Source: Thermoplasmata archaeon (GTDB taxonomy: Archaea > Thermoplasmatota > Thermoplasmata > Lutacidiplasmatales > UBA184). From it: DNA of 64,000 nucleotides. A program made the position numbers and the translations under genes. Shown piece by piece: positions 8,030 through 34,030 of the stretch (position 1 is its first letter; each line of letters starts with the position of its first letter). Under the pieces are notes generated by a model that did not search any database, was not told the DNA's origin, and worked only from the letters and a program-made list of their open reading frames with translations. Where the stretch lies: NCBI GenBank assembly GCA_030041175.1, contig JASHOK010000055.1, forward strand, positions 4,171-68,170, written 5' to 3'.

Positions 8030-8090
8030 CGGTGATGATGCCGCGCTTACAACGCGGAGATCGGCGGTTCGAATCCGTCCCGGCCCACCA
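8015..8090 (+). tRNA. tRNA-Val (anticodon TAC) with encoded CCA
   Basis: Acceptor stem GGGCCGG/CCGGCCC, anticodon stem CCGCG/CGCGG with loop CTTACAA, T-loop GGTTCGAATCC, discriminator A, then CCA. Confidence 0.85.
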
Positions 8091-8143
8091 TCGGTCCACC
8101 GCTCCGGCGAGGATCGGCCGCCCGACAGTGGGCGGAAAGCGCC

Positions 8144-10956: not shown

Positions 10957-11070
10957 CCGGAACTGCCCGGTCTCGGAGTCGCCGGTCCGGGGCGGGGCCG
11001 CCGTCGCGTCCGCCCCCTAGTGCGGCGAGGGGCGAGTCACGGTCCTCGCCTGCTCGACCGGATCCATGGG

Positions 11071-11841
11071 CTACCGTATCGCGACGAGGACCCGATCTTC
11101 GAGGACCTGCCAGACCGTCATCGTGGTCCGGAAACCGGCTCGGCGGAGCGCCGCTACCTGCCCGGGAAGCGGGAGGGCCTTCACGCGCGGGTGCTGCGCG
11201 TGCCGCCGTTCGTGTTCCGCGAAGCTCTCCGCCAACGGCGGCGCACGAGCCGCTTCCTTCCACCAACGCGTCCAGGGCTCGCGTCCCTTCTCCCGAGGCC
11301 GGCCGTGTCGATGGACTCGGTAGATCCGGCGGACCAAGCGCTGGATCTCGGCGTCCCGTGGGCTCTCGGGCAGATGGTCCCCGTTCACGAAAACCCCGCC
11401 CGGGCGAAGGACTCGGGCCAGGTCCCGGTAGGTTTGCCGGAGGGTGGTTGGGGGGAGCCAATGGAGTGCGGTCGTGCTGACCGCTGCGTCGAACCGCCGG
11501 TACGGCAGCCGGTCGGTCCATCCGGGCGCACCGATCTTCGTGTCGAGCCACTGCAGCCGACCGTGGTAGCTTCCGAGCGCCCCTCGGCCGATCCGCAGGA
11601 CCACGGGGTCATAGTCGACCGCGACGCACCGGGCCCGGGGAAAGCGGCGCAGGACCCGGAGGCTGAGAGGTCCGGGCCCGGAGCCGAGGTCAAGTACCCG
11701 GGGAGCGGACCCGACCGCGGCTTCCAAGACATCCATCATGAGATGGAACCGGCGTTCGCGGGCGGGGACGACGGCCTCCTGCTGAGCATCCCACCGCCCC
11801 AGCCACCGGTTCCAGTAGGCGCGAGTCGGAGCTCGAGGCAT
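11071..11841 (-). CDS. class I SAM-dependent methyltransferase
   Basis: VLDLGSGPG motif I and a Rossmann-fold pattern. Start taken at MPRAPTR. The further N-terminal ORF extension is antisense to nothing recognisable and is rejected. Confidence 0.65.
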   Translation of the reverse strand: MPRAPTRAYWNRWLGRWDAQQEAVVPARERRFHLMMDVLEAAVGSAPRVLDLGSGPGPLSLRVLRRFPRARCVAVDYDPVVLRIGRGALGSYHGRLQWLDTKIGAPGWTDRLPYRRFDAAVSTTALHWLPPTTLRQTYRDLARVLRPGGVFVNGDHLPESPRDAEIQRLVRRIYRVHRHGRPREKGREPWTRWWKEAARAPPLAESFAEHERRHAQHPRVKALPLPGQVAALRRAGFRTTMTVWQVLEDRVLVAIR

Positions 11842-11894
11842 GGGCGGTCCAACCCCTGGTCCCAAATGAAACCGGCCTGCCGGCGCACGGGCCT

Positions 11895-12317
11895 TCAGCG
11901 GCGCACGCGCTCGGCCAGTCGGACCAGGTCGTCTCGAGCTGGCGTGCTGGCCTTGGTCTCCCACCACTCGGTCAACCGCAGGCCATCGTCCTGGACCCGA
12001 GGGATGACATGCAGATGGAGGTGGAAGACGCTCTGCTCCGACCCGGGCCCACTCGCGACGAGGAGGTTCTCTCCGGTCGTTCCCAGGGCTTGGCGGAGGC
12101 GCCGCTGCACCTCGGTAGTGAGCTCGCACACCGCCCGCCAATCTTCCGGGGCAATCGAAGCGAGATCGAGCGTATGCGCCTTCGGAATCACGAGCGCGTG
12201 ACCGGGCCGCAGCGGACGAATATCCAGGAAGGCGAAGGCCCGTTCGGTCTCGGCAATCCAGTACGGGACCATCGACCGGTCGTGAATGAGTCGACAGAAG
12301 ATGCAGTCCTCGGGCAC
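11895..12317 (-). CDS. HIT-family (histidine triad) nucleotide hydrolase
   Basis: HLHLHVIP histidine triad; 140 aa. Confidence 0.85.
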   Translation of the reverse strand: MPEDCIFCRLIHDRSMVPYWIAETERAFAFLDIRPLRPGHALVIPKAHTLDLASIAPEDWRAVCELTTEVQRRLRQALGTTGENLLVASGPGSEQSVFHLHLHVIPRVQDDGLRLTEWWETKASTPARDDLVRLAERVRR

Positions 12318-12370
12318 AGCCTCCCGAGAGTGCCCTGAGGGAAAACCCCTCCGGAGCGGCCGGCTCGCCC

Positions 12371-18001: not shown

Positions 18002-18631
18002 ATGGGAGCGGCGAGGCGGACACCGATGGTGGAACTGGTTCGCAAGCGCCAGGTCGAGCAAGGGTGGCTCGTCCAGCACTCGGAGGGACTGAAGACCGCA
18101 TTCCGAGTGATCTTCGGCGGCGTCTGGCTCATCGATGGGGCCCTGAAGTTTGCCCCGGGGCTCGTCGCGCAATTTCCGGCCATGGTCGCCCAGGCTGGAC
18201 AGGGCCAACCCGCCTGGTTGCATCCCTGGTTCAGTTTCTGGGCCAGTCAAGCCGCCGCGGCTCCGGCGTTCTGGGTCTACGCCACCGGAACGTTGGAACT
18301 GGCCCTCGCCTTCTGCCTGATCTTTGGCTTCCTCCGGAAGGTCGCGTACGCCGGTGGAATTGTGCTGAGTCTGCTCATCTGGGCGGTCCCGGAGGGCTTC
18401 GGTGGGCCGTACGGCCCGGGGGCCACCGACATTGGAACCGGCATCGTCTATGCGATCATGTTCCTCGCGCTGATCACGCTGAACGCGGGATACGGGCCCA
18501 GCCGCTGGAGCCTCGACTACTACATCGAGGAACGGTGGCCTCGGTGGGGCGCTTACGCCGAGTTCCAGAAGCTTGTCCCGCCGGAAGACCTGGACTCGAT
18601 CCCCGTCGAGCGGGCGGGATCGGGCGCCTAG
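18002..18631 (+). CDS. DoxX-like integral membrane protein
   Basis: Four predicted TM helices with a DoxX-like N-terminal pattern (VIFGGVWLIDGALKF). Confidence 0.55.
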   Translation: MGAARRTPMVELVRKRQVEQGWLVQHSEGLKTAFRVIFGGVWLIDGALKFAPGLVAQFPAMVAQAGQGQPAWLHPWFSFWASQAAAAPAFWVYATGTLELALAFCLIFGFLRKVAYAGGIVLSLLIWAVPEGFGGPYGPGATDIGTGIVYAIMFLALITLNAGYGPSRWSLDYYIEERWPRWGAYAEFQKLVPPEDLDSIPVERAGSGA

Positions 18632-20486: not shown

Positions 20487-21032
20487 TCACCCCGACACAG
20501 CGTCGAGGATGGTGCGGGAAGCGGCGACCGCTTCGTCCTCCGTCCATGCCTGCACAATGAAGTACCAGCCGAGTACCAGGAGCAGCAGTAGGTTCGGGTC
20601 GCTGCGGCCCTCCGGACTGACGCTGACCAAGCCGCCCGCGAGCCGTGCCTCCTCTCGAACCGGCTCGAAGCTCGCGAGCTCCTTGCCAGCCGCGCTCTGA
20701 AACTCCCACGCCGGGATCCAGAAACCTGTACGGGCCCACCGGTACACCGTTCCGTCCGAAAGCTGAGCCAGGCTCTGGCTCACGTGCACATGGAGCTCGG
20801 CCACCGGCTTGCCCGAATCGGCGTCGTGGACGGCCACGATGGGCCGAACGAATCCATGCCGGCGGAGCGTCCACTTCACTCCCGCTCCCTCGGCGACCGC
20901 GAGTGACTCGACCGGCCGATCCCACCGCAAGGTCGCAATCGGATCCTTCCCAGACTCCAAGTGGTACGAGTGGGCCTCCGGCCCCCTTGTCCAGCGGAGC
21001 CCTTCCATCTCGGCGGCGGACAGCGGCTGCAT
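20487..21032 (-). CDS. hypothetical protein
   Basis: Codon-biased ORF upstream of fhs; start taken at MQPLSAAEM. No recognisable domain. Confidence 0.35.
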   Translation of the reverse strand: MQPLSAAEMEGLRWTRGPEAHSYHLESGKDPIATLRWDRPVESLAVAEGAGVKWTLRRHGFVRPIVAVHDADSGKPVAELHVHVSQSLAQLSDGTVYRWARTGFWIPAWEFQSAAGKELASFEPVREEARLAGGLVSVSPEGRSDPNLLLLLVLGWYFIVQAWTEDEAVAASRTILDAVSG

Positions 21033-21160
21033 ATGGCTAGCGCGTTCCCACGGACCGCGCGGGCAAAAAGGCCACGGTAGGCGGCCCGGGGGCCCCGCCC
21101 GCCCCGGACCCCCAGCCCTCCTCCACCCTTGGCTGCTCGGGAGGAGCGGACCCCTCCCCC

Positions 21161-21240
21161 AATAGACTCTGCATGTCAACACGTAGCAAATGGAGCCCAA
21201 TATATGCGTCTATATTCTATACTCATGTCCTACATATATT
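21161..21240 (+). promoter_or_regulatory. 80-bp AT-rich island with three TATA-like elements (aatatatg, tctatattc, tacatatatt), 23 nt upstream of the AbrB-PhoU regulator ATG
   Basis: A sharp drop in GC (to roughly 35%) inside an about 70% GC genome. Positioned for an archaeal TATA/BRE promoter of the pst locus regulator. Confidence 0.55.
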
Positions 21241-21262
21241 CCGGTTCCCTCGCTCCGGCGAG

Positions 21263-22513
21263 ATGGATGAACCAAGCAGCGCTCGGACTCGGTCGGCGAG
21301 TCCGTGGACCCCCTCCTCGCTCGTGGAGGAGGATGACAGAGCAAACCTCGCCCGAAGACTCCAACGGATGGGCACCGTGACGATCGGTGTTTCCCTGCCT
21401 CGAGAGTGGGTCGGTACCCGCAACCTCTCGGTCGGCAGCACGGTGTTCCTGCGCGCACTGGCCGATGGGTCCTTGCTCATTCAGGACCGGGACCCCTCCC
21501 TCGACCGGGCCTCTGTGGAGGTCCTCGTTCAGCCGGATCGTTCCCGGGAGCATACCTTCCGGGACCTCGTGGCGGCGTACCTTGCCGGCGCCCGGGAATT
21601 CGTGATCCGGGAGAAGGACGGCATTACCCCGGAGACCATGGCGGTCGCCAAGACCTTCGCACGGCGTACCCTCCAGCCCGAGATTGTCTCGGAGGACCGG
21701 GGGGTCCTCGTGCTGCGGGACGTTTCGCGGGGTGCTGAGCTCGACGTCGTGCCACTCCTCCGGCGGATGTTTCAGATCGTCCTGGGGCTGCAGCAGGAAG
21801 CCGCGCGCACCTGGTCCGAACCGGACCGGTGGCGAGGCACTCGGTGGGAGCAGCGGGACGACGAGGTCGACCGACACGCTTGGTTGATCGAGCGCATCCT
21901 GGCCCTCCGTCTCGCGGGTGCCGTTCCGGGAGCCGACGGAGGCTCCCCGACGGACCGCCCATTGCAGACTCTCATCCTGGTGCGGTCCCTCGAACGGATC
22001 GGCGACCACGCCGTCCAGATCGCCGACCAGGGCCTCCGGTGGGCTGAAACGTCCCCTCCCGACCGCGTAGTGCGCCCCGTCTCGGAGTTCCATGGCCAAG
22101 TGATGGACCAGCTCCGGGCGGCCTTCCGCGTGGCGTCTGAGGAACGAGACGCCCTCCACGCCAACGACGTGATCGATGTCGGGGAGGCGCTTCACGCCAC
22201 CTATACGACGCTGACCGAGGGCTTGTTCACTCGGAGCGCGGGGACCGGACTTTCGGCTCTTGCGGCCGTCCCCCTCGGGCTGATCCTCCAATCCATAGAC
22301 CGGACGGTGTCGTATGCCCAGGACATCGCCGAAGTCGGACTGGACCGGAGCACCGTCGTTTCCATCGAGGACGGCGCGGCTGCGGCGAATCCGTCCGCAA
22401 TTCCCCCCACCCCTCGGACGCCCCGAGGCACCCCTCGAGCACCGAGCCGGGTGGGCGGACCCCTTAACGCGCCACGGAATCGAAGGAGAAAACAGGAGAA
22501 GGAACCAGAATGA
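21263..22513 (+). CDS. phosphate uptake regulator (N-terminal AbrB/SpoVT swapped-hairpin domain fused to tandem PhoU domains)
   Basis: TVTIGVSLPREWVG AbrB-like N-terminus followed by PhoU-like helical repeats (ERIGDHAVQIADQ). Sits immediately upstream of pstS. Confidence 0.7.
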   Translation: MDEPSSARTRSASPWTPSSLVEEDDRANLARRLQRMGTVTIGVSLPREWVGTRNLSVGSTVFLRALADGSLLIQDRDPSLDRASVEVLVQPDRSREHTFRDLVAAYLAGAREFVIREKDGITPETMAVAKTFARRTLQPEIVSEDRGVLVLRDVSRGAELDVVPLLRRMFQIVLGLQQEAARTWSEPDRWRGTRWEQRDDEVDRHAWLIERILALRLAGAVPGADGGSPTDRPLQTLILVRSLERIGDHAVQIADQGLRWAETSPPDRVVRPVSEFHGQVMDQLRAAFRVASEERDALHANDVIDVGEALHATYTTLTEGLFTRSAGTGLSALAAVPLGLILQSIDRTVSYAQDIAEVGLDRSTVVSIEDGAAAANPSAIPPTPRTPRGTPRAPSRVGGPLNAPRNRRRKQEKEPE

Positions 22514-23706
22514 GCGCACCAAACCAACAGAGCGAGACGATTCAGAGCAAGGGGTCCAGCCGAACCGGCTGGTACGCCGCGGTTGCGGTGATCATCGTTG
22601 TGATCATCCTGTTCGCGGGACTGTACGCTGCCGGCTACATCGGCAAGAAGACCACGACCCCGTCGGGCCCTGGAGCGTGTACGAGTGTCACAATCCTGGG
22701 CGCGGGCTCGACCTTTGTGGAACAGCTACAGGACGAGTGGGCGTCGGTCTACAAGACCGGCTCCGTGGACTATGACGCGGTCGGCAGCGGTGCCGGTATC
22801 TCCGACATCACGGCCAAGACCGTGACCTATGGAGCGAGTGACGCACCGTTGAACACCACCCAAGCCGCCGCTGCGCCCGGGCTCCTAACGATGCCCGAGA
22901 CGGCGGGTGCAGTTGCGGTGATTTTCAACCTGCCGGGCGTTAGCTTCCCCCTCGGCTACTCCCTGAACGTCACCGGGCAGATCCTCGCGGCGATCTACCT
23001 CGGCACCATCTCAACGTGGAACAACTCGGCCCTGGTCGCGCTGAACCCGAAGCTCGCCGACGTCAACCAGACGATTGCGGTCTACCACCGGTCCGATGGA
23101 AGCGGAACGAGCTACGCCTTCACGCAGTTCCTCTCGGACAGCAACGCGACCTGGAAGAACACCATTGGCTACAGCACCCTTCCCAACTGGCCGGCCACCC
23201 CCTTGGGCGGCGGTGAAAAGGGTAGCTCGGGGATTGCGGGAACCGTCAAGATCACCCCGTACTCGCTTGGGTACGTCGATCTCGGCGAAGCCGCGTCCAA
23301 CGTCATCTCGTACGCCGCAGTGGAGAACCCCTCCGGAAAGTTCGTGATCCCGACGGTCAACGACACGGCCTCGGCCATCTCGGACATCCTGGCGACGGTA
23401 ACCCTCCCCGCGGGCAGTGCGAGCTGGGCGGACGTGTCGATGATCAACGCGCCGGGCGCCAAGGACTACCCGCTCGCGACGTTCTCGTACATGCTGTTCT
23501 ACCAGGCGGCCAACGACAACCCCGTGATCACCAGCTCATCCTACGCCTCGACGTTCGCGAACTGGTTGAACTGGACCGTCACCAAGGGTCAGTCCTACTC
23601 GGGCCAGCTGTACTACATCCCACTCCCCTCCTCCGTCGTGACGGCGGACCAGACGACCATCGCGTCGATGACCTACAACGGGGCCGCGATCGCGTCGTGC
23701 ACGTAG
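22510..23706 (+). CDS. pstS: phosphate ABC transporter substrate-binding protein PstS
   Basis: N-terminal membrane anchor. GAGSTFVEQL...AVGSGAGISD and DGSGTSYAFTQFL PstS motifs. Confidence 0.9.
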   Translation: MSAPNQQSETIQSKGSSRTGWYAAVAVIIVVIILFAGLYAAGYIGKKTTTPSGPGACTSVTILGAGSTFVEQLQDEWASVYKTGSVDYDAVGSGAGISDITAKTVTYGASDAPLNTTQAAAAPGLLTMPETAGAVAVIFNLPGVSFPLGYSLNVTGQILAAIYLGTISTWNNSALVALNPKLADVNQTIAVYHRSDGSGTSYAFTQFLSDSNATWKNTIGYSTLPNWPATPLGGGEKGSSGIAGTVKITPYSLGYVDLGEAASNVISYAAVENPSGKFVIPTVNDTASAISDILATVTLPAGSASWADVSMINAPGAKDYPLATFSYMLFYQAANDNPVITSSSYASTFANWLNWTVTKGQSYSGQLYYIPLPSSVVTADQTTIASMTYNGAAIASCT

Positions 23707-23752
23707 AGGCGAGTTCAGCTAGGTAGACACGCCAGGCCGGGATTCTGCGTCG

Positions 23753-24754
23753 ATGCTCCGAGGCGCGCGGACTCCCGGCCGAACCTTTTCCAGTCGGCTA
23801 CGACGGGCCCTCGACCTGGGCTTCATGGGCCTCACGCTCGCGGTGGCCGTCGGAATCCTCGCTCTGCTCACGGCGTTCGTCCTAGTGCTCATCCACGGAG
23901 CCCAGCTGTCCATCGCTCGATTCGGCATCTCCCTCCTGGGCAACCCGCACTGGAACCCGAGTGCGAATGTGCTGGGTCTTCTCCCCTTCATCATCGGAAC
24001 GCTCCTTACGTCGGCGATTGCACTCATCATCGCGGTGCCGCTCAGCATCGGCATCGCGGTGTTCCTGTCGGAGCTGACCCCCCGATGGATCTCGGAGCCG
24101 TTCGGATACCTGGTGGAGCTGCTCGCCGCGGTACCGTCCGTGATCTTCGGCGTCTGGGGGATCTTCATCCTGATCCCGTTCATGCGTACGACAATCGACC
24201 CTGCGCTCGAGAAGTGGAATCTCTCGTTCAACCGACTGCTCCACGTGAACGTTCCCGTCTTCACGGGCCCGATCCTCGGTTCGGGGGTGCTGACCGCCGG
24301 CGTGATCCTGGCGATCATGATCATTCCAACGATCTCGGCCATCAGCCGGGAGGCCCTCCGGGCCGTCCCGCAGCAGCAACGGGAGGCCGCGCTGGGCCTC
24401 GGGGCCACTCACTGGGAGAGTACGCGCATCTCGGTGCTGAGCTACGCGCGCATCGGCATCGTGGGCGCGGTCATCCTCGGATTGGGACGAGCGGTCGGAG
24501 AAACGATGGCCGTTACGATGGTCATCGGCAACTCGAACTTCATCCCGCGGAGCCTCTTCGACCAGGGGCAGACGATCGCGAGCCTCATCGCCAACGACTT
24601 CCTCTCGGAGTACAGCTCTCCGCTCGCCGCGAGCGCCTTCATCGAAGCCGCCCTCGTGCTTCTGGTGATCACACTCGCGATCAACGTCGGTGCCCGCATC
24701 CTGGTCTGGCGACTGGTGGCCCGGGGCGGCGGAGGAGGGGCGAATGAAATTTAA
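23753..24754 (+). CDS. pstC: phosphate ABC transporter permease PstC
   Basis: Multi-TM protein with an EAA-like loop (ISREALRAVPQQQREAALGLGAT). Confidence 0.85.
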   Translation: MLRGARTPGRTFSSRLRRALDLGFMGLTLAVAVGILALLTAFVLVLIHGAQLSIARFGISLLGNPHWNPSANVLGLLPFIIGTLLTSAIALIIAVPLSIGIAVFLSELTPRWISEPFGYLVELLAAVPSVIFGVWGIFILIPFMRTTIDPALEKWNLSFNRLLHVNVPVFTGPILGSGVLTAGVILAIMIIPTISAISREALRAVPQQQREAALGLGATHWESTRISVLSYARIGIVGAVILGLGRAVGETMAVTMVIGNSNFIPRSLFDQGQTIASLIANDFLSEYSSPLAASAFIEAALVLLVITLAINVGARILVWRLVARGGGGGANEI

Positions 24755-25607
24755 CCGGGATGGCCGCCGTCGGATCTTCAACTGGGTCGTGAGCGGACTC
24801 TGCTTCCTCTGTGTCGTTGCTGCGCTGATCCCGCTCCTGAGCATCATTTACACGGCCGTGATCAACGGAGGCCGCGTCCTGAGTTTCAACTTCCTGGTCG
24901 CACCCCTCTCGTTCGGGTTCTGCACACCGGGTGTCAGTTGCTACGGAGGCATCGGGCCGGCGCTAGCAGCGACCCTGATCGTCGTGGGCATCGCGTCCGG
25001 TATTTCCGTTCCGACGGGCGTTCTGGCGGGAATCTACCTCTCAGAGTATGGGAAGAACCGGCTCGGGCGATCCATCAGTTTCTTCACCGACGTGATGACC
25101 GGCTCGCCGTCGATCGTGGTCGGGCTGTTCGTCTACGCGGCCTTCGTCTACTTCGAACCCCGACTGGCCTTCAGTGCCCTATCGGGCTCCGTGGCGCTCG
25201 CGGTGATCATGATCCCCATCGTGACGCGGACGACCGAGGAGGGGCTCCGTCTAGTCCCGAACGCGCTTCGGGAAGGCGCCTACGCACTCGGAATCCCCCG
25301 ATACCGGGCCGTGGTGCAGATCGTGCTCAGTACCGGCCGGAGCGTCGTGATCACCGGGGTGGTGCTCGCGGTGATGCGGGCGGCGGGCGAGGTAGCGCCG
25401 CTCCTGCTCACGGCCTTCTGGAACAACAATGGGTTCACCGGCATCAACCAGCCGGCCGGTCTCCTCGGGCCGCTCATCTACATGGACGCGGAGAGCCCGT
25501 CGCCCTATCTCGTCGCCGCGGCGTGGGGCGCCTCGCTCATTCTGATCCTGCTCATGCTCGGAATCAGCCTGGCCGCCCGGATCGCGTTGCGCAAACGTTT
25601 CACGTAG
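24744..25607 (+). CDS. pstA: phosphate ABC transporter permease PstA
   Basis: Multi-TM protein with a permease loop (TTEEGLRLVPNALREGAYALG). Start taken at MKFNR, overlapping pstC by 11 nt. Confidence 0.8.
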   Translation: MKFNRDGRRRIFNWVVSGLCFLCVVAALIPLLSIIYTAVINGGRVLSFNFLVAPLSFGFCTPGVSCYGGIGPALAATLIVVGIASGISVPTGVLAGIYLSEYGKNRLGRSISFFTDVMTGSPSIVVGLFVYAAFVYFEPRLAFSALSGSVALAVIMIPIVTRTTEEGLRLVPNALREGAYALGIPRYRAVVQIVLSTGRSVVITGVVLAVMRAAGEVAPLLLTAFWNNNGFTGINQPAGLLGPLIYMDAESPSPYLVAAAWGASLILILLMLGISLAARIALRKRFT

Positions 25608-25625
25608 CCAAGGAGAGCGAACGAC

Positions 25626-26426
25626 GTGCAGGGAGAGGCGTTTGGCAAGTCCACTCAACTGAATCACGATGCGTCGCCGGCGAAGATGTCGGTGGCCGGC
25701 CTCTCCGCCTACTACGGGAAGAAGAAGGCCATCTCCAACGTTTCTCTCGATTTCCGGCAGAACAGCGTGACGGCCATCATCGGTCCGTCGGGTTGCGGGA
25801 AGTCCACCCTGATCCGGTGCCTCAACCGGATGCACGAGGTCACGCCGGGTGGCTGGGTGGAGGGGAAGGTCCTCTTGGACGGGGAGGATATCCTCGACCA
25901 GGACCCGGTGTCGGTCCGCCGTCGGATCGGGATGGTCTTCCAGAAGCCGAACCCGTTCCCCACAATGTCGGTCTATGACAACGTCGCGGCGGGGCTCCGG
26001 CTCAACGGGGTCCGCAAACGCGAGATCCTCGACGCGGCCGTGTTGCGGAGCCTGAAGCAGGCGGCGCTCTGGGACGAGGTCAAGGAGAACGTGCACGGCT
26101 CCGGGAACCGGCTCTCGGGCGGACAACAGCAGCGGCTGTGCATCGCCCGAGCACTGGCCATCGAGCCCGAGGTTATCCTGATGGACGAGCCGTGTTCCGC
26201 CCTCGACCCGATCGCGACCGCGAAGATCGAGGACCTGATCTTCGACCTCCAAAAGACCTACACCGTCGTGATCGTGACCCACAACATGCAGCAGGCGGCG
26301 CGGGTGGCGGAGTATACCGCGTTCATGTACCTGGGCGAACTCATCGAGTTCGACCGAACGAAGAAGATCTTCGAGCAGCCGGCGCAGAAACTGACCGAGA
26401 ATTACATCACCGGGAGGTTTGGATAA
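25626..26426 (+). CDS. pstB: phosphate ABC transporter ATP-binding protein PstB
   Basis: Walker [10 protein letters not shown], signature LSGGQQQRL, Walker [12 protein letters not shown]. Confidence 0.9.
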
Positions 26427-27157
26427 TGCCCACGGCCGTCGAGCGAAAGGCGCTCTCCGAGGCGCTCGAACACCTCAATGAGAACATGCGCACCATGTCG
26501 GAGCTCGCCGTCCTGGCGATCCGAAAGGCCGTCGAGGCGCTGGAGAAGGGCCGCAGCCATGACGCCGACGAAGTCTTCACCCTCGACCAGGAGATCTACG
26601 GTCTCAAGCAGAAGATCGAGCACTCCTGCATTGAGCTCATCGCCCTGTACGCTCCCGTGGCGAGCGACCTCCGGACGATCACCGCCTCCCTCGAGATCAC
26701 CACGGACCTGGACCGCATCGGGCGCTACTCCAAGGACATCGCCGAAGCGGCGGAGAAGCTCCGGGGGATGAGCCGGGAGAGCCTCGGGAAGGTGGGAAAC
26801 CTGACCCGGATGGCCGACCTCACGATCCAGATGATCGAGACGTCGGTCAACGCCTTCGCGCAGCGCCAGGCGGAGCCGGTCCGGGACATCGTCCGCACCG
26901 ACGACGCGATCGATGCCCTGCACGACGAGGTCTTTCAGGAACTCGTCGAGAAGATGACCGACCAGTCGGTTTCGCCGCGAGTCGGCGCCCAGTACATCCT
27001 CATCAACCGCTATTTCGAGCGGCTCGCCGACCACGCGGTCAACATCGGTCTGGACGTGATCTACATGATCACCGCCGAGCGGCCCATCAAAACGAAGCGG
27101 CGGGACGCGACTCCCCGGGGCACCGAGCCCGCTGCGTCGTCCACCGGAACCAGCTAG
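26426..27157 (+). CDS. phoU: phosphate signalling complex protein PhoU
   Basis: Two PhoU repeats (DLDRIGRYSKDIAE, NRYFERLADHAVNI). ATG overlaps the pstB stop (TAATG). Confidence 0.85.
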   Translation: MPTAVERKALSEALEHLNENMRTMSELAVLAIRKAVEALEKGRSHDADEVFTLDQEIYGLKQKIEHSCIELIALYAPVASDLRTITASLEITTDLDRIGRYSKDIAEAAEKLRGMSRESLGKVGNLTRMADLTIQMIETSVNAFAQRQAEPVRDIVRTDDAIDALHDEVFQELVEKMTDQSVSPRVGAQYILINRYFERLADHAVNIGLDVIYMITAERPIKTKRRDATPRGTEPAASSTGTS

Positions 27158-27178
27158 GGCCGTCGGAACGGAAGCTCC

Positions 27179-28690
27179 ATGGGCCGACCCGGTGCCCCGC
27201 TCGTACCGCGGTCCCTGCGGCGGGCACTGACTGAAACCGGGCCGATCGGCTCCACCACGCATCAGCTCTCGGTCCGCCTCGAGACGCCGGAATCCGAATT
27301 GGACGCCCTCCTGGAGCGTCTGGCCCTCCACGGGGACGTCGTCCGGATCGGCCGGGGGCTCTGGCTCCTCGCAGCCTACGCGGAGCTCGACCGGCGGGAG
27401 GATTTCCATGCTCCCGAAGAGTATGTCGAACGCTTCGCACACGAGAACGGAGTGGTCCTCGGCCGGTACGAGGGGCCGATCACCTTCTCCGACAACACGG
27501 TAGCCCCAGTCCATCGGTGGTGGCCCTATGTGCAGGGTTTTTCCGCCGACTTCGTGGCCGGCGTCCTCCAGGACGAAGGGCTGAGTCCCGGCTCGACCGT
27601 GCTGGACCCATTCGCCGGCAGTGGAACCACCCTCGTCGAGGCGCGGAGAGCGGGTCATCGTCCCTGGGGGACGGAGCTGCTGCCACCGGCGGCGCTGGCC
27701 GCCCGGGTGAAGACGCGTTTCGAGCTGCCGAGTGCCCGGCTGCTCTCCCAAGCCCGGACGGTCCTCCGAACTGCCGCCCGTCGGACGCCGTCTTCGGTGC
27801 CCTTCCTACGGGAGACCTCTCGGCAGTTTCTGGCCGCCACCCTCCGTGACCTGACGCGGCTGCGGGACGCGCTCCCGGGCGCCACCGACCCGATGAGCGA
27901 AGCGCTGCGTGTGGCGTTCGGCCGCATACTGATTCCCGTGAGTCGGCTCCGTCGGTCCCCGTGCTTGGGCTACGGTCGGCCGGACGCGGACCAGCCGCGG
28001 GATCCGTTCACCGAGTTCCGGAACGCGGTTGACGAAATGGCTCAGGACCTGGACTTCCTGACGCAATCCCGTTCGCGCTGGGGCCCGGCCGGCCACGTCT
28101 GGCAGCGCGACGCTCGGAACCTGGATCTACCCCCCAGCTCGGTCGACCTCGCGGTGACCAGCCCGCCCTACGTCAACGGCATGGACTACGTGAACAACTA
28201 CAAGCTCGACCTCGCCTGGCTCGGGTACGCGAAGGGGTATGCCGACCTGCGGCGACTTCGCGAAGCCCTGGTGGCCTGCGACAATCTCGGCCGCGCGGCG
28301 GTCCGGCCCCATCTGGGCACGGACGATGTGCCGGACCGGTGGCTCCGGGAGATTCTCCGGCAAATCCGGAGCAACGTGGACCAGAAACGAAGTTATCGTA
28401 GAGACGACGCCCACGGAGTGGTCAAGCGATACTTCTTGGACCTCCGGCCGGTGCTTGCCGCCGTGTACCGTGCACTCCGGCCCGGGGGCCGCTTCCGATT
28501 GGTCGTGGGCGACTCGCTCCTCGCGGGCACCTACGTTCCCGGCGACCTGTTGACGGCTCGACTGGGCGCCGACGTCGGGTTTCACATCACCGCCGTCGAC
28601 ATCGCTCGGCGCCGGTGGTCCGGACAACGGCGCGATTTCCCGCTTCGAGAGACGGTCGTCACTCTGCAACGTCCGGTGGGAGACTCGTAG
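27179..28690 (+). CDS. site-specific DNA methyltransferase (N6-adenine/N4-cytosine class) with an N-terminal winged-helix region
   Basis: SAM motif I VLDPFAGSGTT preceded by a HRWWPY...FSADFV block, and catalytic motif IV SPPY (in LAVTSPPYVNGMDY) about 185 aa downstream. The order I then IV with an intervening TRD-sized region indicates an alpha-class enzyme. Confidence 0.7.
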   Translation: MGRPGAPLVPRSLRRALTETGPIGSTTHQLSVRLETPESELDALLERLALHGDVVRIGRGLWLLAAYAELDRREDFHAPEEYVERFAHENGVVLGRYEGPITFSDNTVAPVHRWWPYVQGFSADFVAGVLQDEGLSPGSTVLDPFAGSGTTLVEARRAGHRPWGTELLPPAALAARVKTRFELPSARLLSQARTVLRTAARRTPSSVPFLRETSRQFLAATLRDLTRLRDALPGATDPMSEALRVAFGRILIPVSRLRRSPCLGYGRPDADQPRDPFTEFRNAVDEMAQDLDFLTQSRSRWGPAGHVWQRDARNLDLPPSSVDLAVTSPPYVNGMDYVNNYKLDLAWLGYAKGYADLRRLREALVACDNLGRAAVRPHLGTDDVPDRWLREILRQIRSNVDQKRSYRRDDAHGVVKRYFLDLRPVLAAVYRALRPGGRFRLVVGDSLLAGTYVPGDLLTARLGADVGFHITAVDIARRRWSGQRRDFPLRETVVTLQRPVGDS

Positions 28691-28704
28691 CGCCGGAGGG
28701 ATGG

Positions 28705-29583
28705 ATGCCGCGGTCCAAGCCCAGCGCTCGGGAGGCCACGTTCCTTCGGGCCGAGATCGCCCGCTCCGCGCGACGGGCCGAGGCGGGGCTTCGGGCCGCG
28801 GCCTATCGGGAGATGCCCGATCCCGAGACCCTGCATCGTCTGCATCGGGACCTCCGCGAACTTCGCGTTACGCACCGTCTGCTCCTACCCGTACCGAAGG
28901 CCGGAACCCCGGAGGACGCGATCGACCGTCGCCTGCGAAAATTGGCCGGCCTGGTCGGAGAGGTCCGGGACCGCGATGTGGCCATCGACCTCCTCCTGCG
29001 CGCGGGCCGCGACGCGGACCCGAAGCTTCGGCAGAATCTTCGGACACAGCTCCGGCACGAGGGCGAGGTGGGGCGGCAGCTCCTCCGAGCGGCGGCTCGT
29101 GCCGAAATAGACCGTCGCTTGCTCCAGACGGTCATCCGAGACGTGGCTGGGGCCTCGGTGCCTGGTCCCGCTCGGCTCCGCCGGGAGCTGCAGTCTGCGC
29201 TGGCCCAGCACCATCAGACGGTCGTCCGCGCGTTCCGTCGTGGCCTCAAGAAGCCCTCGACCCGTCGGCTGCATCGGCTCCGGATCGCTCTCCGCAACGC
29301 CCGGGCGCTGCGGGTCCTGGTCGGTCGCGCAACGGGGCACCCGGCCGAGTCCGTACCGGCCGAGCTCGAGAAGCTCCAGCGGACCCTCGGTCGCCTGCAC
29401 GACCTCGACATGGTCACCGAGCGGATCACGGGCCTTCCGTCCGGGGAGAATCTCGACCGCTGGGAGCGTCAATGGCGTCGGGCCCGCAAATCGGAGCGGA
29501 TCCAGGTCCTGGCGCGCATGCAACGGAAGCGGACCCGGAAGTCGCTTTCCTGGCTAGCCCTAGGACCTGCCGAGGACCAATGA
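28705..29583 (+). CDS. CHAD-domain protein
   Basis: All-alpha protein with the Arg/His-rich helical repeats characteristic of the CHAD (conserved histidine alpha-helical) domain; located next to ppx. Confidence 0.55.
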   Translation: MPRSKPSAREATFLRAEIARSARRAEAGLRAAAYREMPDPETLHRLHRDLRELRVTHRLLLPVPKAGTPEDAIDRRLRKLAGLVGEVRDRDVAIDLLLRAGRDADPKLRQNLRTQLRHEGEVGRQLLRAAARAEIDRRLLQTVIRDVAGASVPGPARLRRELQSALAQHHQTVVRAFRRGLKKPSTRRLHRLRIALRNARALRVLVGRATGHPAESVPAELEKLQRTLGRLHDLDMVTERITGLPSGENLDRWERQWRRARKSERIQVLARMQRKRTRKSLSWLALGPAEDQ

Positions 29584-29629
29584 CTGAATCTCTGCGTGAC
29601 CCGACGGGGAGTTCATAGGCCGGGGGGAC

Positions 29630-31201
29630 TTGCGCGTGACACCACTGACGATGTCGGCGAGTTCCCCTGTCCTCCTGACCGAGATCCGGCCCGGAGAGGC
29701 GAGCCAGCTGGCCGTCATCGACCTGGGCTCGAACACGGCACGGCTGGCAATCTTCGAGGTCACGGGCGAGGGCGGGCTGCGGACCGTCTATGAGGTGAAG
29801 GAGGTTCCACGGCTCGGGAAGGGTGTCCGTGACGACCTCTCCCTCTCGCCCGGAGCCATCGAGCGCGGGCTGGCCACCCTAACCCGATTTTCCCGACACC
29901 TCACGGTCATGGGGAATCCTCCCACCATCGCCGTCGCGACGAGTGCGGTACGCGACGCGCCGAACGGGCGAGCGTTCATCGAGCGGATCGCCCGGAGGAC
30001 CGGCATCCTGATGCGCGTGATCTCCGGCGAGGAGGAAGCTCGCCTGGGCTATCTGGGCGTGGCGTCGGCCTGGGAGCTCGACCGGGACGTGATCGCGGAC
30101 CTGGGCGGCGGCTCGCTCCAGCTTGCGTCGACCCGCAGCGGTCAGCTCGAGCGGTCGAGCAGCCTCCCCCTGGGCGCGCTCCGAATGACGCAGGACTTCC
30201 TGCGGCACGACCCTCCCAAGCGCAAGGAGCTGGAGGCAGCACGGGACCACATCCGGAAGGAGCTCGCCGCGACGCCGCTGCCCCGTCCTTCGGAGCGGCT
30301 GCGGATCTTCGGCGTCGGAGGAACGATCCGGTGCCTCGCCCGGGTGGCGATGGAGCTTCGGGAGTACCCGGTCCAGCGGGTCCATGGCTACCGGCTCAAC
30401 CGGAGGGATCTGGATGTTCTGGAGGGCATCTTGCTCGAAATGACGGCTCCGCAACGGCGGGAGGTACCCGGCATCAGCGCCGCGCGCGCGGATGTCATCG
30501 TGGCGGGGTTACTGGTCGTCGACGAGCTCCTACGTCGGACCGACCGGGATGAGCTCTGGGTGACCGGGCACGGAATCCGCGAGGGTGCGGTCATCGAGCG
30601 ACTCGCGATTCCGGTGCCGGCGTCGCAGGAGGTCCTGGCCTTCCGTTCCGTGACCGCCGCGGCTCGAGCGATGGGATTCTCCCTGATCCACGGCGAGCAG
30701 GTCCGCCGGCTGGCCCTCACACTCTTCGACCGGCTCCAGACCCGCTTCGGGTGGACGGCCAACGACCGGCTGGTCCTCTCGGTCGCGGCCTGGATGCACG
30801 ACGTGGGCGCCGTGGTGGACCCCTGGCATCACCCGCAGCACTCCGCCTACCTGATCCGGAACCTGGCCAGCCTTTCGCTCACCGACCGGGACGCGGTTCT
30901 GGCGTCCCTGGTGGCGTACCTTCATGAGGGGGATGAGATGCCCGAGGGCTGGGCCAAGACGTGGCGCGCCATCCTCACCCCGGACGACCTGCAGGTCGCT
31001 CGACAGCTCGGCACGATCGTTTACTTTGCCGAGACCCTCGAGGGCGCGCGCCTCACGGTGACCCTCCCGCGCGGATCTCAACGCCTGCGTATCGAGCCGT
31101 ACCGGAACGGCGGAGCCTCGGTGCCGCCCCGCGCCGTCGAGCGCCTGCGAAAGCCGATCGAGCGGGTCTTCGAACTGGAGCTGGTGGCCCCGGATGAGTG
31201 A
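29630..31201 (+). CDS. ppx: Ppx/GppA-family exopolyphosphatase / guanosine pentaphosphate phosphohydrolase with a C-terminal HD-like domain
   Basis: AVIDLGSNTARLAI and DLGGGS actin-like ATPase-fold motifs. C-terminal HD-related region (AAWMHDVG). Confidence 0.8.
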   Translation: MRVTPLTMSASSPVLLTEIRPGEASQLAVIDLGSNTARLAIFEVTGEGGLRTVYEVKEVPRLGKGVRDDLSLSPGAIERGLATLTRFSRHLTVMGNPPTIAVATSAVRDAPNGRAFIERIARRTGILMRVISGEEEARLGYLGVASAWELDRDVIADLGGGSLQLASTRSGQLERSSSLPLGALRMTQDFLRHDPPKRKELEAARDHIRKELAATPLPRPSERLRIFGVGGTIRCLARVAMELREYPVQRVHGYRLNRRDLDVLEGILLEMTAPQRREVPGISAARADVIVAGLLVVDELLRRTDRDELWVTGHGIREGAVIERLAIPVPASQEVLAFRSVTAAARAMGFSLIHGEQVRRLALTLFDRLQTRFGWTANDRLVLSVAAWMHDVGAVVDPWHHPQHSAYLIRNLASLSLTDRDAVLASLVAYLHEGDEMPEGWAKTWRAILTPDDLQVARQLGTIVYFAETLEGARLTVTLPRGSQRLRIEPYRNGGASVPPRAVERLRKPIERVFELELVAPDE

Positions 31202-31904
31202 GCGGCCGATGGCACCCCCGGCTCCGGGCAACAACGGCGGAACGGGCCGACTGCTCGTCGTCGAGGGCCTCGATGGCAGCGGGAAATCGACCCAGGCCCG
31301 ACTGCTGGTGAAGTGGCTCCAGTCGCGCGGGTATCGCGTTTTCTTCACGGAATGGAATTCGTCGGAGCTGGTCTCGGGCGTCATTCGTCGCGGAAAGAAG
31401 AAGGGACTGTTGACGCCGACGACCTTCGCACTCCTTCACGCTACGGACTTTGCGGACCGGCTCGAGCGGCAGATTCTCCCGCCGCTGCGCGCCGGGTACT
31501 TCGTGGTCTGCGACCGCTACTGCTACACCGCCTTCGCGCGGGATACCGCACGCGGCTGCGACCCGGCCTGGGTTCGGAACATGTACTCGTTCGCGCCCGT
31601 ACCGGACAAGGTGCTCTACTTCCGTGTCCCGGTCCAGGTCTCCCTGGACCGGAAGCTCGCGTCGCGGGAACCGATCTCGTACTACGAAGCCGGGATGGAC
31701 CTGCATCTCGCCGACGATGTCGTGGAGAGTTACCAGCGATTCCAGGCGGCCCTCCGGCGCGGCTACGAGAAGCTCGTGACGACCGACCACCTTGTCCCGA
31801 TCGACGCGGCGAAGCCGGTGGAGCAGGTGCTCACCCGGGTCCGCTCCGAGGTCAAGCCGCTGCTGAACGAATTCCCCAAGATGGAGACGCTGGTCCATGG
31901 TTAG
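31194..31904 (+). CDS. tmk: thymidylate kinase-like P-loop kinase (paralog 1)
   Basis: LLVVEGLDGSGKST P-loop and a DRYCYT DRY/H motif. Confidence 0.7.
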   Translation: MSERPMAPPAPGNNGGTGRLLVVEGLDGSGKSTQARLLVKWLQSRGYRVFFTEWNSSELVSGVIRRGKKKGLLTPTTFALLHATDFADRLERQILPPLRAGYFVVCDRYCYTAFARDTARGCDPAWVRNMYSFAPVPDKVLYFRVPVQVSLDRKLASREPISYYEAGMDLHLADDVVESYQRFQAALRRGYEKLVTTDHLVPIDAAKPVEQVLTRVRSEVKPLLNEFPKMETLVHG

Positions 31905-32673
31905 GACGTACGGGACGCGCATCCCCAATCTGCCGAAGAAGGAGCTTCCCGGCCACCTCATCGTGGTCGAAGGCGCGGACGGGTCCGGGCGGACGACCGA
32001 GGTCGAGATGCTCCGCGACTGGCTCGAGATCCAGGGACACCCGGTCGTGGACACGGGTCTCCGCCGCTCCACCCTCGTCAGCAAGCAGATCGACCGGGCG
32101 AAGCTCGGTCATACACTCGGCGCGACCACGATGGCGCTGTTCTACGCCGCCGACTTCGCCGACCAGCTGGAGAACAAGATCCTTCCGGCGCTCTCGGCCG
32201 GGAGCACCGTCCTCGCCGACCGGTACACGTACACCCTGATGGCCCGGGCGATTGTCCGCGGCGCTACCCGGGAGTACGCGGAAAAGCTGTATGCGTTCGC
32301 CTTCGAGCCGGACCTCATTATCTTCCTCGATGCGCGTACCGACATCCTCCTCCACCGGGCGATCGCGAAGTACGGGTCGCTCGACTACTGGGAGAGCGGG
32401 ATGGACCTCTCGCTCTCCCGCGACCGCTTCGAGAGTTTCTTCGCGTATCAGGGGCTGCTCAAGAAGGAGTTCGACTGGATGGCGCGAACGTACGGGTTCC
32501 AGCGCGTGGACGCGAACCGGACCCCGTTCCAGGTCCACCGCGACGTGAAGGCGGTCGTGGCGGCGCTCTTCGGCAAGAAGGTCCGCATCGAGGTAGGGGT
32601 CGAGGGGAGCCCGAAGGTCGCTACCGTGCCCGAGGTGTCGGGTCTCGGCCCCACGGAAGGACAGAACGCCTAA
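31897..32673 (+). CDS. thymidylate kinase-like P-loop kinase (paralog 2), with Arg replacing the P-loop Lys
   Basis: HLIVVEGADGSGRTT and ADRYTYT. Shares the unusual YWESGMDLSL block with paralog 1 (YYEAGMDLHL). 8-nt overlap with paralog 1. Confidence 0.6.
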   Translation: MVRTYGTRIPNLPKKELPGHLIVVEGADGSGRTTEVEMLRDWLEIQGHPVVDTGLRRSTLVSKQIDRAKLGHTLGATTMALFYAADFADQLENKILPALSAGSTVLADRYTYTLMARAIVRGATREYAEKLYAFAFEPDLIIFLDARTDILLHRAIAKYGSLDYWESGMDLSLSRDRFESFFAYQGLLKKEFDWMARTYGFQRVDANRTPFQVHRDVKAVVAALFGKKVRIEVGVEGSPKVATVPEVSGLGPTEGQNA

Positions 32674-33170
32674 CCCAACCGCTCGAGCTGCTTCCTCGTC
32701 AGGATCCAGTCGATCTCGGCGGCGCCCGCCCGGGCCTCGCGGGAGAAGTTGAGCTGGGCGACCCCGGCCTTGGCGAAGCGGGTGATCGGGACGGAATCGC
32801 CGGTGACCGCGAGACCGAGAAGCTCCCCGAGAGTGGGCTCATGACCGACCAGCGCGATTCCCCGGCGGCGGGAGTACCGCTGCACGCGCTCGAGAATCGG
32901 TCCGGGCGACGTGTCCGGCTCGAGCTCGTCCCAGAGTTCGAGCTCGGCCTCGACCTCGAGGACCTCTCGAAAGATCTCGGCGGTCGCCCGGGCGCGGACG
33001 GCCGGACTCGCCACGACCTTATCGACGGCAGGACGCAACTTCGCCAGCCCCTTCGCGGCGCGACGCGTCGACCGAACTCCGTCGGGCGTCAGTGGCCGTG
33101 TGCGATCATCCGGCCACCGGGACGGGTCGCGGTCGGCCGCCGGCCCGTGCCGGATCAGGAGCAGGTCCAT
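32670..33170 (-). CDS. histidine-phosphatase superfamily protein (SixA / phosphoglycerate-mutase-like)
   Basis: LLLIRHG catalytic RHG motif near the N-terminus and a downstream GHEP His motif. Start taken at MDLLLIRHG. Confidence 0.65.
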   Translation of the reverse strand: MDLLLIRHGPAADRDPSRWPDDRTRPLTPDGVRSTRRAAKGLAKLRPAVDKVVASPAVRARATAEIFREVLEVEAELELWDELEPDTSPGPILERVQRYSRRRGIALVGHEPTLGELLGLAVTGDSVPITRFAKAGVAQLNFSREARAGAAEIDWILTRKQLERLG

Positions 33171-33277
33171 CCCGAGCGTTCCCTCGCTCCGCGAGAATCG
33201 GCGGCCTATAACGACCCCTGCTTGTCGACCCAAACCCTTAGGGAGGTGATGCGCCGGCTGCCGGGTCGAGGTCCCCT

Positions 33278-34030
33278 ATGGAAGCGTCGATCCCCCCACC
33301 CTCGTTCACCGAACCCGCGCTGGGCATTGTCTTCGACCTGGATGGCACGCTCGTCGATAGCCAGCACGACTTTCCCCGGCTGCGTAAGACCGTCGTCCAC
33401 CTGGCCGAGAAGTACGGGGTTGCGCCGGGTCGGCTGTCCATCACCGAGACCGTGAACCGGCTCCTGCGGGACGCGACCGCCATTCTCGCGGCACAGAACG
33501 TCCCGGAAGGCCAGATCTTCCGCTTCGAGAAGGAGGTCAACGAGGCGATCGATACGATCGAGATGGAGGCGCTGCCACGGACGAAGGCAGCCCCCAATGC
33601 CGGTCCGGTGCTCAAGGCGCTCAGCGAGAAGGGATTCCGGCTGGGTCTCCTCACCCGGAGCTCCGACCACTTCGCCCGGTCCGCCCTGTCCAAGACGGAG
33701 CTCGCTCCGTACTTTCCATTCCTCCGAAGCCGCAGCTCACCGGGGCCGGTCAAGCCGTCGCCCGAGGCACTCCGATTGCTGCTCGACACGATGGGCGTGC
33801 CGACCGACCGCGCCGTGCTGGTGGGCGACCAACTCCTGGATTGTGAGTGTGCGGTGGCGGCCCGGGTCAAGTTCTACGGGGTCCTGCTTCCCGCCAAGGA
33901 CCCGCTCCACGTCGATATCGACAAGTTCCGGGCCGGTGGGGCGACCGCCGTGGCCCGAGATCTGGCGGAACTGGCGGGGTTCTTCGGGGCGAAAGTGGGG
34001 GCCGGACCCAGCGCGCCAGCACCCCGCTAG
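33278..34030 (+). CDS. HAD-superfamily hydrolase
   Basis: Motif I FDLDGTLVDS, motif II LLTRS and a motif IV VGDQLLD pattern. Confidence 0.75.
   Translation: MEASIPPPSFTEPALGIVFDLDGTLVDSQHDFPRLRKTVVHLAEKYGVAPGRLSITETVNRLLRDATAILAAQNVPEGQIFRFEKEVNEAIDTIEMEALPRTKAAPNAGPVLKALSEKGFRLGLLTRSSDHFARSALSKTELAPYFPFLRSRSSPGPVKPSPEALRLLLDTMGVPTDRAVLVGDQLLDCECAVAARVKFYGVLLPAKDPLHVDIDKFRAGGATAVARDLAELAGFFGAKVGAGPSAPAPR

Follow-up and report, generated by a model that had tools for sequence, protein, structure and literature searches.

Why a methyltransferase gene without a restriction partner should stand among genes for phosphate uptake and polyphosphate storage is the question raised by the locus analysed here. 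The window, which is a stretch of 64,000 nucleotides of contig JASHOK010000055.1 from a Thermoplasmata archaeon, carries between phoU and a CHAD-domain gene a gene encoding an N-terminal winged helix-turn-helix (wHTH) followed by a methyltransferase domain. The initial annotation had described it as a solitary alpha-class DNA methyltransferase that interrupts a phosphate/polyphosphate gene string. The gene is best explained as a persistent orphan amino-DNA methyltransferase derived from Type II systems, which has been conserved and vertically inherited and is probably co-transcribed with the Pho and polyphosphate genes. On the sequence evidence this explanation is considered likely.

The open reading frame (ORF) is real and not a chance product, as its GC content at third codon positions (GC3) is 0.81, its ratio of nonsynonymous to synonymous substitution (dN/dS) is 0.12-0.17 against five orthologues, and it has more than 1600 homologues of about 500 aa. 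The dN/dS values are in the same range as those of CHAD and pstS, and the gene is under purifying selection. The translation contains motif I for binding of S-adenosylmethionine (AdoMet), DPFAGSGTT, and the catalytic SPPY 185 aa downstream of it within TSPPY (nt 28157-28171), in agreement with the spacing first noted. In an alignment of 62 sequences the residues D143, P144, G147, S148, G149 and T150 of motif I and T327, S328, P329, P330 and Y331 of the catalytic motif were invariant, as were G24, T26, Q29, G58 and L61 of the wHTH.

The structure of the window protein was modelled with AlphaFold2 on 62 homologues. The model, having a mean pLDDT (the predicted score of the local distance difference test) of 91.5 and a predicted template modelling score of 0.90, consists of a winged helix (aa 11-64), a linker, a Rossmann core and helical inserts at about aa 181-305 and 337-432. 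The winged helix is made up of helices 11-20, 27-34 and 38-50 and strands 54-57 and 61-64, while the core strands are placed at 140-143, 161-165, 322-327, 433-444, 469-480 and 488-497 with flanking helices. As modelled, the core is of the class I Rossmann methyltransferase type and its AdoMet-binding and catalytic motifs are intact. An invariant loop RSPCLGY (aa 259-265) lies within the first helical insert and has low pLDDT at 261-264. The winged helix, which had been proposed from the letters alone, is thus seen in the model and also in Pfam matches of the family. The AbiEi_4 match of the window protein is weak (E 0.0095); this family was matched by 15 of 62 members with a best value of 2.8e-5, and wHTH families of MarR, GntR, Crp or IclR type matched other members. 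The N-terminus of the family profile (aa 1-64, 27179-27370) also gave weak matches to Z-alpha domains of the vaccinia E3 type and of ADAR1 (E 6e-4 to 3e-3), and its winged helix weakly matched FeoC. These matches probably reflect generic wHTH similarity.

The class of the enzyme was analysed by profile searches. The Pfam family N6_N4_Mtase (PF01555) scored 42.8 bits against a cut-off of 26.7 over aa 136-167 and was matched by all 62 aligned family members. The Type II methyltransferase profiles of PADLOC spanned aa 95-493 with an E value of 2.6e-35, the best profile reaching 1.3e-40. A search of the PDB with the family profile returned mostly DNA N4-cytosine and N6-adenine methyltransferases, with TTHA0409 (2zie) first at 2.7e-15, followed by the N4-cytosine enzymes 8s9n and 8s9m, CcrM, M.MboIIA and M.RsrI; Trm11 appeared at 8e-6. 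The matches in NCBIfam (CcrM, Trm11/Trm14, PRK13699) were sub-threshold and limited to motif I. The profile searches therefore favour DNA over RNA or protein as the substrate, which is in accordance with the DNA-type amino-methyltransferase initially proposed. In a search of 1.8 billion representatives the core (aa ~100-498) was found to be widespread, with 130 representatives at E < 1e-30, and the wHTH extension was confined to the closest relatives.

The comparison with TTHA0409 of Thermus thermophilus also bears on the assignment to the alpha class. Three segments of the protein matched this structure in permuted order, and the blocks shared with the beta-class PF01555 enzymes (TTHA0409, M.RsrI, M.MboIIA, CcrM and the N4-cytosine enzymes) are TSPPY at motif IV, the strand 'PGGR..VVGD' and, for the motif X/I region, 'H....P....VLDPFAGSGTT'. 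The window protein differs from TTHA0409 in having the AdoMet half first, two large helical inserts and the extra wHTH. The linear order of AdoMet motifs, helical insert (about 130-150 aa) and then catalytic motif is that of the alpha class, and to this extent the initial assignment holds; its sequence, on the other hand, makes the protein a circularly permuted member of PF01555, a family that is mostly beta-class, with motif I first and SPPY second. Solved structures show little overall similarity in fold. The PDB matches from Foldseek were weak, generic methyltransferase matches with template modelling (TM) scores of at most 0.30 on the query, which do not decide the substrate class, and all fold matches in the PDB and among viral models were methyltransferases. 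Among the viral models the best near-full-length match was S4VQ82 of Pandoravirus dulcis (E 7.4e-15, TM 0.50-0.52), whose annotation is that of an N4-cytosine DNA methyltransferase. The virus has five DNA methyltransferases including this one, and N4-methylcytosine (m4C) is present in its genome (PMC7253447). S4VQ82 is likewise solitary and of similar size (485 aa). It differs in its origin from a eukaryotic giant virus and in lacking a polyphosphate context, the identity being 21% over 459 columns.

The target amino group is most likely N4 of cytosine, because SPPY is invariant in the family and SPP(Y/F) is typical of m4C enzymes. This assignment, made by analogy, is probable.

The absence of a partner was examined in the window, where the Pfam scan covered 47 of 48 selected ORFs. 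No restriction endonuclease, specificity subunit, helicase, integrase, transposase or other defence gene was found among them, and tblastn found no homologue of the GIY-YIG nuclease that accompanies some paralogues (described below). The neighbours of the methyltransferase are phoU and CHAD, and the orthologous loci are likewise without an adjacent nuclease. Within the 64-kb window the gene is a solitary methyltransferase without a nuclease partner, as had been claimed. It is highly improbable that it serves as the modification component of an active restriction-modification system, with a nuclease that cannot be recognised or that lies in another part of the genome. The view is limited to 64 kb of the genome and restriction enzymes evolve fast, often without Pfam matches, but in Type II systems the two partners nearly always lie side by side, and the genes that closely flank the methyltransferase here are both identified. 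Two window ORFs without a Pfam match (18002-18631 on the plus strand and 20487-21200 on the minus strand, with coding-like GC3 of 0.82 and 0.80) might be considered as candidates; they lie 6-9 kb off, past the operon boundary. The nuclease of the paralogues is missing from the window, and complete Type II systems do not typically persist through long vertical descent (PMC10609329).

The age of the gene was assessed from its composition, divergence and gene order. GC content, GC skew and GC3 (0.76-0.91 in the neighbours) showed no anomaly. In pairwise comparisons the identity of the methyltransferase rises and falls with that of ppx (r = 0.90, Mantel p ~0.001), with mean identities of 0.69 and 0.66, respectively. 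For the second kinase-like gene the correlation was weak (Pearson 0.17); best-hit picking had probably mixed the two kinase paralogues and this value was not used. Clustering of 71 full-length proteins of the same clade, pooled from all fetched loci, gave 63 clusters at the 90% level of identity and 34 at the 80% level, so that many lineages and not one population are represented. The gene maps of the related loci were made by tblastn mapping with GC3-filtered ORFs, as a longest-ORF map was noisy owing to long antisense ORFs at 67% GC. Loci of at least 73% identity (locus handles are given with L) have either the gene order of the window or the order abrB-phoU, methyltransferase, CHAD, ppx (L007). 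Most loci of 57-63% identity have the order abrB-phoU(+), sixA(+), two kinase-like genes(-), ppx(-), CHAD(+), methyltransferase(+), HAD(+). The CHAD-methyltransferase pairing is kept through three or more gene orders, among them one in which the two genes have changed places, and the CHAD stop is followed by the methyltransferase start after a median spacer of 37 nt (-4 to 68 nt in n=55 relatives). The HAD gene is the most constant downstream partner. Three loci (L009, L044, L051) have the order methyltransferase-(zinc ribbon)-HAD without CHAD or ppx, and four others (L057, L059, L075, L091) have polyphosphate genes without the methyltransferase.

The gene has long belonged, by vertical inheritance, to the phosphate/polyphosphate cluster in a large uncultured Thermoplasmata clade and is not a recent insertion. 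The contrary view, that it was inserted recently between phoU and CHAD or is the decaying remnant of a defence island, may draw on the restriction-modification relatives in the family and on a function foreign to the neighbours, yet it is extremely improbable. The composition check, which had been suggested for signs of recent insertion, found GC, skew and codon-position GC matching the neighbours. The catalytic motifs are intact and invariant under purifying selection, the position is the same across dozens of lineages with co-divergence with ppx, and no integrase, transposase or other defence gene accompanies the gene in the scanned ORFs. A defence-island remnant is contradicted also by the housekeeping surroundings, although the restriction-modification background of the family itself was supported. 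The location between phoU and the CHAD and ppx genes was described correctly in the initial annotation, while the notion of an interruption does not stand, as the placement beside CHAD is conserved.

The relatives gave insight into the ancestry of the enzyme. All named homologues are from metagenomes or from metagenome-assembled genomes (MAGs) of Thermoplasmata or Euryarchaeota. They form two groups across 47 species-representative genomes. Clade A has 57-81% identity to the window protein, is a single clade and is always found in the same chromosomal neighbourhood; the taxon labels of these relatives read 'Thermoplasmata archaeon', with one Ca. Lutacidiplasmatales. Clade B has 38-49% identity and is located elsewhere. 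One MAG contains one copy of each clade (L002 and L029), and the two clades are thus paralogues. In eight clade B loci, two of them re-fetches of the L029 region, a convergent gene for a 305-aa GIY-YIG protein overlaps the 3' end of the methyltransferase. This protein scored 24.7 bits for GIY-YIG against a cut-off of 22.6 and weakly matched PDC-S14, a candidate defence family of PADLOC; the methyltransferases paired with it are 42-47% identical to the window protein. In L048 the methyltransferase (6001-7578, plus strand) and the GIY-YIG gene (7545-8462, minus strand) stand tail-to-tail with an overlap of 34 nt, and similar pairs were seen in L026, L031, L032, L037 and L042, where the surrounding small ORFs have no Pfam matches. 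These pairs are probably an uncharacterised Type II restriction-modification system of Thermoplasmata. As paralogues are paired tail-to-tail with a GIY-YIG nuclease, the methyltransferase family is probably derived from Type II restriction-modification systems. A third homologue group (L024, L028, L041 and L043, ~8001-9476; 44-48% identity) is convergent to a 1164-aa gene (~10771-14265, minus strand), taken by eye as the DNA polymerase D large subunit, and may be another orphan lineage in a core-gene context.

Several points weigh against the explanation as a persistent orphan DNA methyltransferase. The alignment to N6_N4_Mtase covers only about 32 residues around motif I, and on the same stretch the RNA-methyltransferase family UPF0020 (PF01170) is above its cut-off (27 bits against 22.3, with profile positions 18-47 of 197 aligned). 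The top PDB match of Foldseek is Trm11, the tRNA N2-methylguanosine-10 (m2G10) enzyme, though the match is weak (E 2.5e-6, TM 0.30/0.46). The SPPY motif alone cannot settle m4C against N6-methyladenine (m6A), and enzymes of the two kinds can be very similar (PMC10609329). All homologues are from uncultured MAGs or metagenomes. In a ppx-anchored search, for which 80 metagenome loci were fetched and 65 had enough flank, the methyltransferase adjoined CHAD in 61 of the 65 informative loci (94%), a prevalence counted in loci and not in genomes, and biased upwards by a ppx query built from loci that had been found through the methyltransferase. Finally, the pairing with CHAD is tighter and more durable than hitch-hiking needs.

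The first of these points lead to a non-DNA substrate, which could be RNA, in an m2G-type reaction as with Trm11 or RlmKL, or an amide or amine of a protein, as with PrmC, perhaps of the neighbouring CHAD protein. The (D/N/S)PPY enzymes include RNA and protein-glutamine methyltransferases. UPF0020, the RlmKL-like family, exceeded its cut-off in 60 of 62 relatives besides the window protein, Trm11 was found in sequence searches also, and Trm11/RlmKL share with the window protein the motif I region and the order of motif I before xPPY. The UPF0020 and Trm11 matches are, however, limited to the motif I region (~30-90 residues), whereas the Type II DNA methyltransferase profiles and the pandoravirus enzyme match near full length, the inserts and C-terminal half match DNA methyltransferases, and DNA enzymes dominate the PDB profile search. 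No THUMP or other RNA-binding domain was found by Pfam in any of the 62 members, the N-terminus being a winged helix instead, and close paralogues are paired with a nuclease in restriction-modification style. A non-DNA substrate is consequently quite improbable. The profile-search check for an RNA or protein methyltransferase favoured DNA in this way, though not conclusively.

For an orphan DNA methyltransferase the following mode of action is proposed. The enzyme would use AdoMet to methylate an exocyclic amino group within a short specific DNA sequence throughout the chromosome, with sequence recognition supplied by helical insert 1, the wHTH or both. Its ancestor would have belonged to a restriction-modification system and lost the partner nuclease. 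Operator binding may be a further function of the wHTH, as it is in M.SsoII, in which residues 1-71 form the N-terminal region and residues 72-379 the methyltransferase (PMC3978073). M.SsoII and M.Ecl18kI have the same layout of an N-terminal HTH of ~70 aa followed by the methyltransferase domain, and their N-terminal region binds the operator and regulates transcription (PMC3978073, PMC2760811); the wHTH of the window protein resembles it in architecture, and these two are C5-cytosine enzymes inside complete bacterial restriction-modification systems. The methylation mark could serve gene regulation, which would agree with the epigenetic regulator initially suggested as one possibility, the timing of replication or repair, or protection from related restriction systems.

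The divergence between the clades was compared along the protein. Between clade A and the clade linked to GIY-YIG the wHTH, linker and insert 1 are the most diverged parts, with identity of 0.32-0.34 against 0.50-0.63 in the core. This pattern fits that expected of specificity regions and suggests that clades A and B have different target sites. Protection by the orphan against the related GIY-YIG system through a common specificity was also considered and is unsupported, since it is in the likely recognition regions that the two clades have diverged most.

The features of the gene and its surroundings are summarized in Table 1.

Table 1. Coordinates of the methyltransferase gene, its parts and the neighbouring features in the window
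Feature	Position	Strand	Details and evidence
Orphan wHTH-methyltransferase gene	27179..28690	+	503 aa; ORF list, Pfam, PADLOC, AlphaFold2, dN/dS
N-terminal winged helix-turn-helix, AbiEi_4-like	27209..27370	+	aa 11-64; model and AbiEi_4 matches
Motif I (AdoMet binding), DPFAGSGTT	27605..27631	+	aa 143-151; translation
Motif IV (catalytic), SPPY	28160..28171	+	aa 328-331; translation
Helical insert 1, candidate target-recognition region	27719..28093	+	aa ~181-305; between AdoMet and catalytic halves
AT-rich island, up to 75% AT	21161..21248	+	AT-window scan; probable promoter region of the whole gene string (inferred)
AbrB/MazE-PhoU fusion regulator gene	21264..22513	+	Pfam PhoU and weak MazE_antitoxin match
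pstS-pstC-pstA-pstB phosphate ABC transporter genes	22510..26426	+	ORFs; pstS PBP_like_2; orthologues in L001-L006
phoU	26423..27157	+	Pfam PhoU 5.3e-40; stop 21 nt before methyltransferase start
CHAD-domain gene (polyphosphate-granule-binding type)	28705..29583	+	Pfam CHAD 1.7e-24; GGAGGGA before ATG
ppx (exopolyphosphatase, Ppx/GppA family)	29630..31201	+	Pfam Ppx-GppA 6.9e-57
Two tandem thymidylate-kinase-like genes	31194..31904, 31897..32673	+	Pfam Thymidylate_kin; probably PPK3-type pair
SixA-type histidine phosphatase gene	32670..33233	-	Pfam His_Phos_1
HAD-family phosphatase gene	33278..34030	+	Pfam HAD_2 8e-22

The arrangement of the neighbouring genes was analysed for co-transcription. 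From 21264 to 32673 eleven co-directional genes follow each other with gaps of -11 to +46 nt; the true start of CHAD lies 14 nt past the methyltransferase stop, and its orthologues begin at the same Met. The 88-nt AT-rich island contains several TATA-like runs followed by the ATG at 21264, and it is the only strong island of this kind between 20.5 and 36.5 kb in a sequence of 67% GC. The abrB-phoU gene probably starts at this ATG rather than at the listed 21173. Because of the tight gaps and the lone AT-rich island just upstream, we infer that abrB-phoU, pstSCAB, phoU, the methyltransferase, CHAD, ppx and the kinase pair form one 11-gene transcription unit of 11.4 kb. Expression of the methyltransferase would then probably follow that of the Pho and polyphosphate genes in this genome. 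Nearly all related loci have an AbrB-PhoU-type gene at the side of the polyphosphate cluster, and AbrB-PhoU is a candidate regulator of the whole cluster.

The CHAD, Ppx-GppA, two Thymidylate_kin and His_Phos_1 genes are clustered at 28705-33233. The best PDB match of the kinase-like genes was 2plr/5h70 (Sulfurisphaera tokodaii STK_15430) with 8.7e-55 and 8.1e-34, against ~1e-14 and ~1e-11 for true dTMP kinases. STK_15430 is a homologue of the catalytic PPK3 subunit, and the PPK3 operon has been described (PMC12995831). In Sulfolobus acidocaldarius the polyphosphate operon is sixA-ppx-cPPK3-rPPK3-CHAD (PMC12995831), and all five gene types are clustered in the window also. The sixA, ppx and CHAD genes with the kinase pair are thus probably a Sulfolobus-type PPK3 polyphosphate operon, here in Thermoplasmata; Thermoplasma is not mentioned in the PPK3 paper (PMC12995831). 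Compared with the S. acidocaldarius operon, the window adds pstSCAB-phoU, the AbrB-PhoU regulator, the HAD phosphatase and the methyltransferase between phoU and CHAD. The remaining genes of the window (archaeosine-TGT-like, aconitase, formate-tetrahydrofolate ligase, response regulator, carbamoyl-phosphate synthase, AsnC regulator, tRNA synthetase, DHH phosphoesterase, gyrase A, dihydropteroate synthase and PolB) are those of an ordinary housekeeping chromosome.

This context raises the alternative that the methyltransferase is a working, selected part of the phosphate/polyphosphate module and not a passenger. Its amount might follow the phosphate or energy status, so that DNA methylation would be a read-out, or the wHTH-methyltransferase might bind and mark the polyphosphate and Pho promoters and thereby regulate the cluster. 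It would be co-expressed with CHAD from a promoter region shared with ppx-ppk3 or, as here, from the Pho operon promoter. The gene stands directly beside CHAD on the same strand with the short spacers given above in 55 loci, and the pairing occurs in three arrangements, namely phoU-methyltransferase-CHAD-ppx in the window, abrB-phoU-methyltransferase-CHAD in L007, and, in most loci, CHAD-methyltransferase-(zinc ribbon)-HAD divergent from ppx. All other annotated genes of the cluster are phosphate-related, the window gene lies inside an apparent Pho transcription unit, and there is one apparently natural methyltransferase-HAD fusion (P0213). The DNA-binding-type wHTH is conserved, but it is common to paralogues in unrelated contexts and hence is no polyphosphate-specific addition. 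The link to the polyphosphate genes is broken both ways in the seven loci listed above, and the Sulfolobus polyphosphate operon has no methyltransferase, a word that is absent from the paper describing it (PMC12995831). No link of CHAD or polyphosphate to a DNA methyltransferase was found in the literature searched, and a search for Thermoplasmatota polyphosphate in peat likewise found nothing relevant there. The conserved promoter boxes of the relatives are absent from the window. Moreover, persistent orphan methyltransferases are known to ride in unrelated operons. The dam gene of E. coli lies in the operon aroK-aroB-damX-dam-rpe-gph-trpS, which illustrates that co-transcription need not mean common function. 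A functional membership of the phosphate module is on balance unlikely, while being a credible alternative.

The persistent orphan explanation was also compared with known systems. Persistent methyltransferases are defined by their occurrence in 75% or more of the genomes of a taxon that comprises five genomes or more, usually without a nuclease, and such orphans are common in archaea and mostly m4C enzymes (PMC10609329). The archaeal examples, such as the CTAG m4C group HG1 of Halobacteria (PMC10609329), are likewise solitary, conserved in their taxon, vertically inherited and under purifying selection, and they too are without a partner nuclease while related copies elsewhere have one; the window enzyme resembles them also in probably making m4C. 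The window enzyme differs from them in belonging to another family, with a permuted PF01555 core and a wHTH, and in being embedded in a polyphosphate operon. The same survey reported no persistent group among 18 Thermoplasmatota genomes (PMC10609329), a gap that is due to the few, cultured genomes covered.

Where an orphan occurs throughout a lineage, as do Dam and CcrM in bacteria and the haloarchaeal CTAG enzyme, it is usually the sign of an epigenetic housekeeping role. The gene is a candidate for such a function in a widespread uncultured Thermoplasmata clade, and if this is true all carriers are expected to share one methylated motif. In the literature searched there is no report of the unusually stable pairing, within one operon, with CHAD, the polyphosphate-granule protein. 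If the link to CHAD were functional, phosphate and energy storage would be connected to DNA methylation, and a part in the phosphate module would make the system a phosphate-responsive epigenetic switch in archaea. The presence of nuclease-paired and orphan branches in one family makes it a useful case of the domestication of a restriction-modification gene.

Some minor features of the related loci were also observed. The divergent CHAD/ppx spacer is ~112 nt long (L058-L131; for example L065 ~9890-10000) and otherwise GC-rich. It contains two conserved AT-rich boxes, (CAC)GTAAAYCATTCGG and CCGAGYCCTATTAGAG, each ~25-40 nt from a start codon. These are the boxes that the window lacks, and they are probably divergent archaeal TATA/BRE (TFB recognition element) promoter elements for CHAD-methyltransferase and ppx-ppk3 and not palindromic operators. 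The fusion protein P0213 (786 aa; L050 8001-10361, JGI 3300075764) consists of a clade A methyltransferase whose reading frame continues into the HAD phosphatase that follows; either the two genes are truly fused, or a stop codon was lost through a sequencing error. For the zinc-ribbon protein neither a Pfam match nor a window homologue was found. It is encoded by a 95-aa ORF with two CPxCG...CxxCG repeats, located between the methyltransferase and HAD in 44 related loci (for example L008 9529-9813, L051 9567-9854 and L058 7089-7373 on the minus strand), and in L007 this ORF lies just upstream of HAD at 14144-14425.

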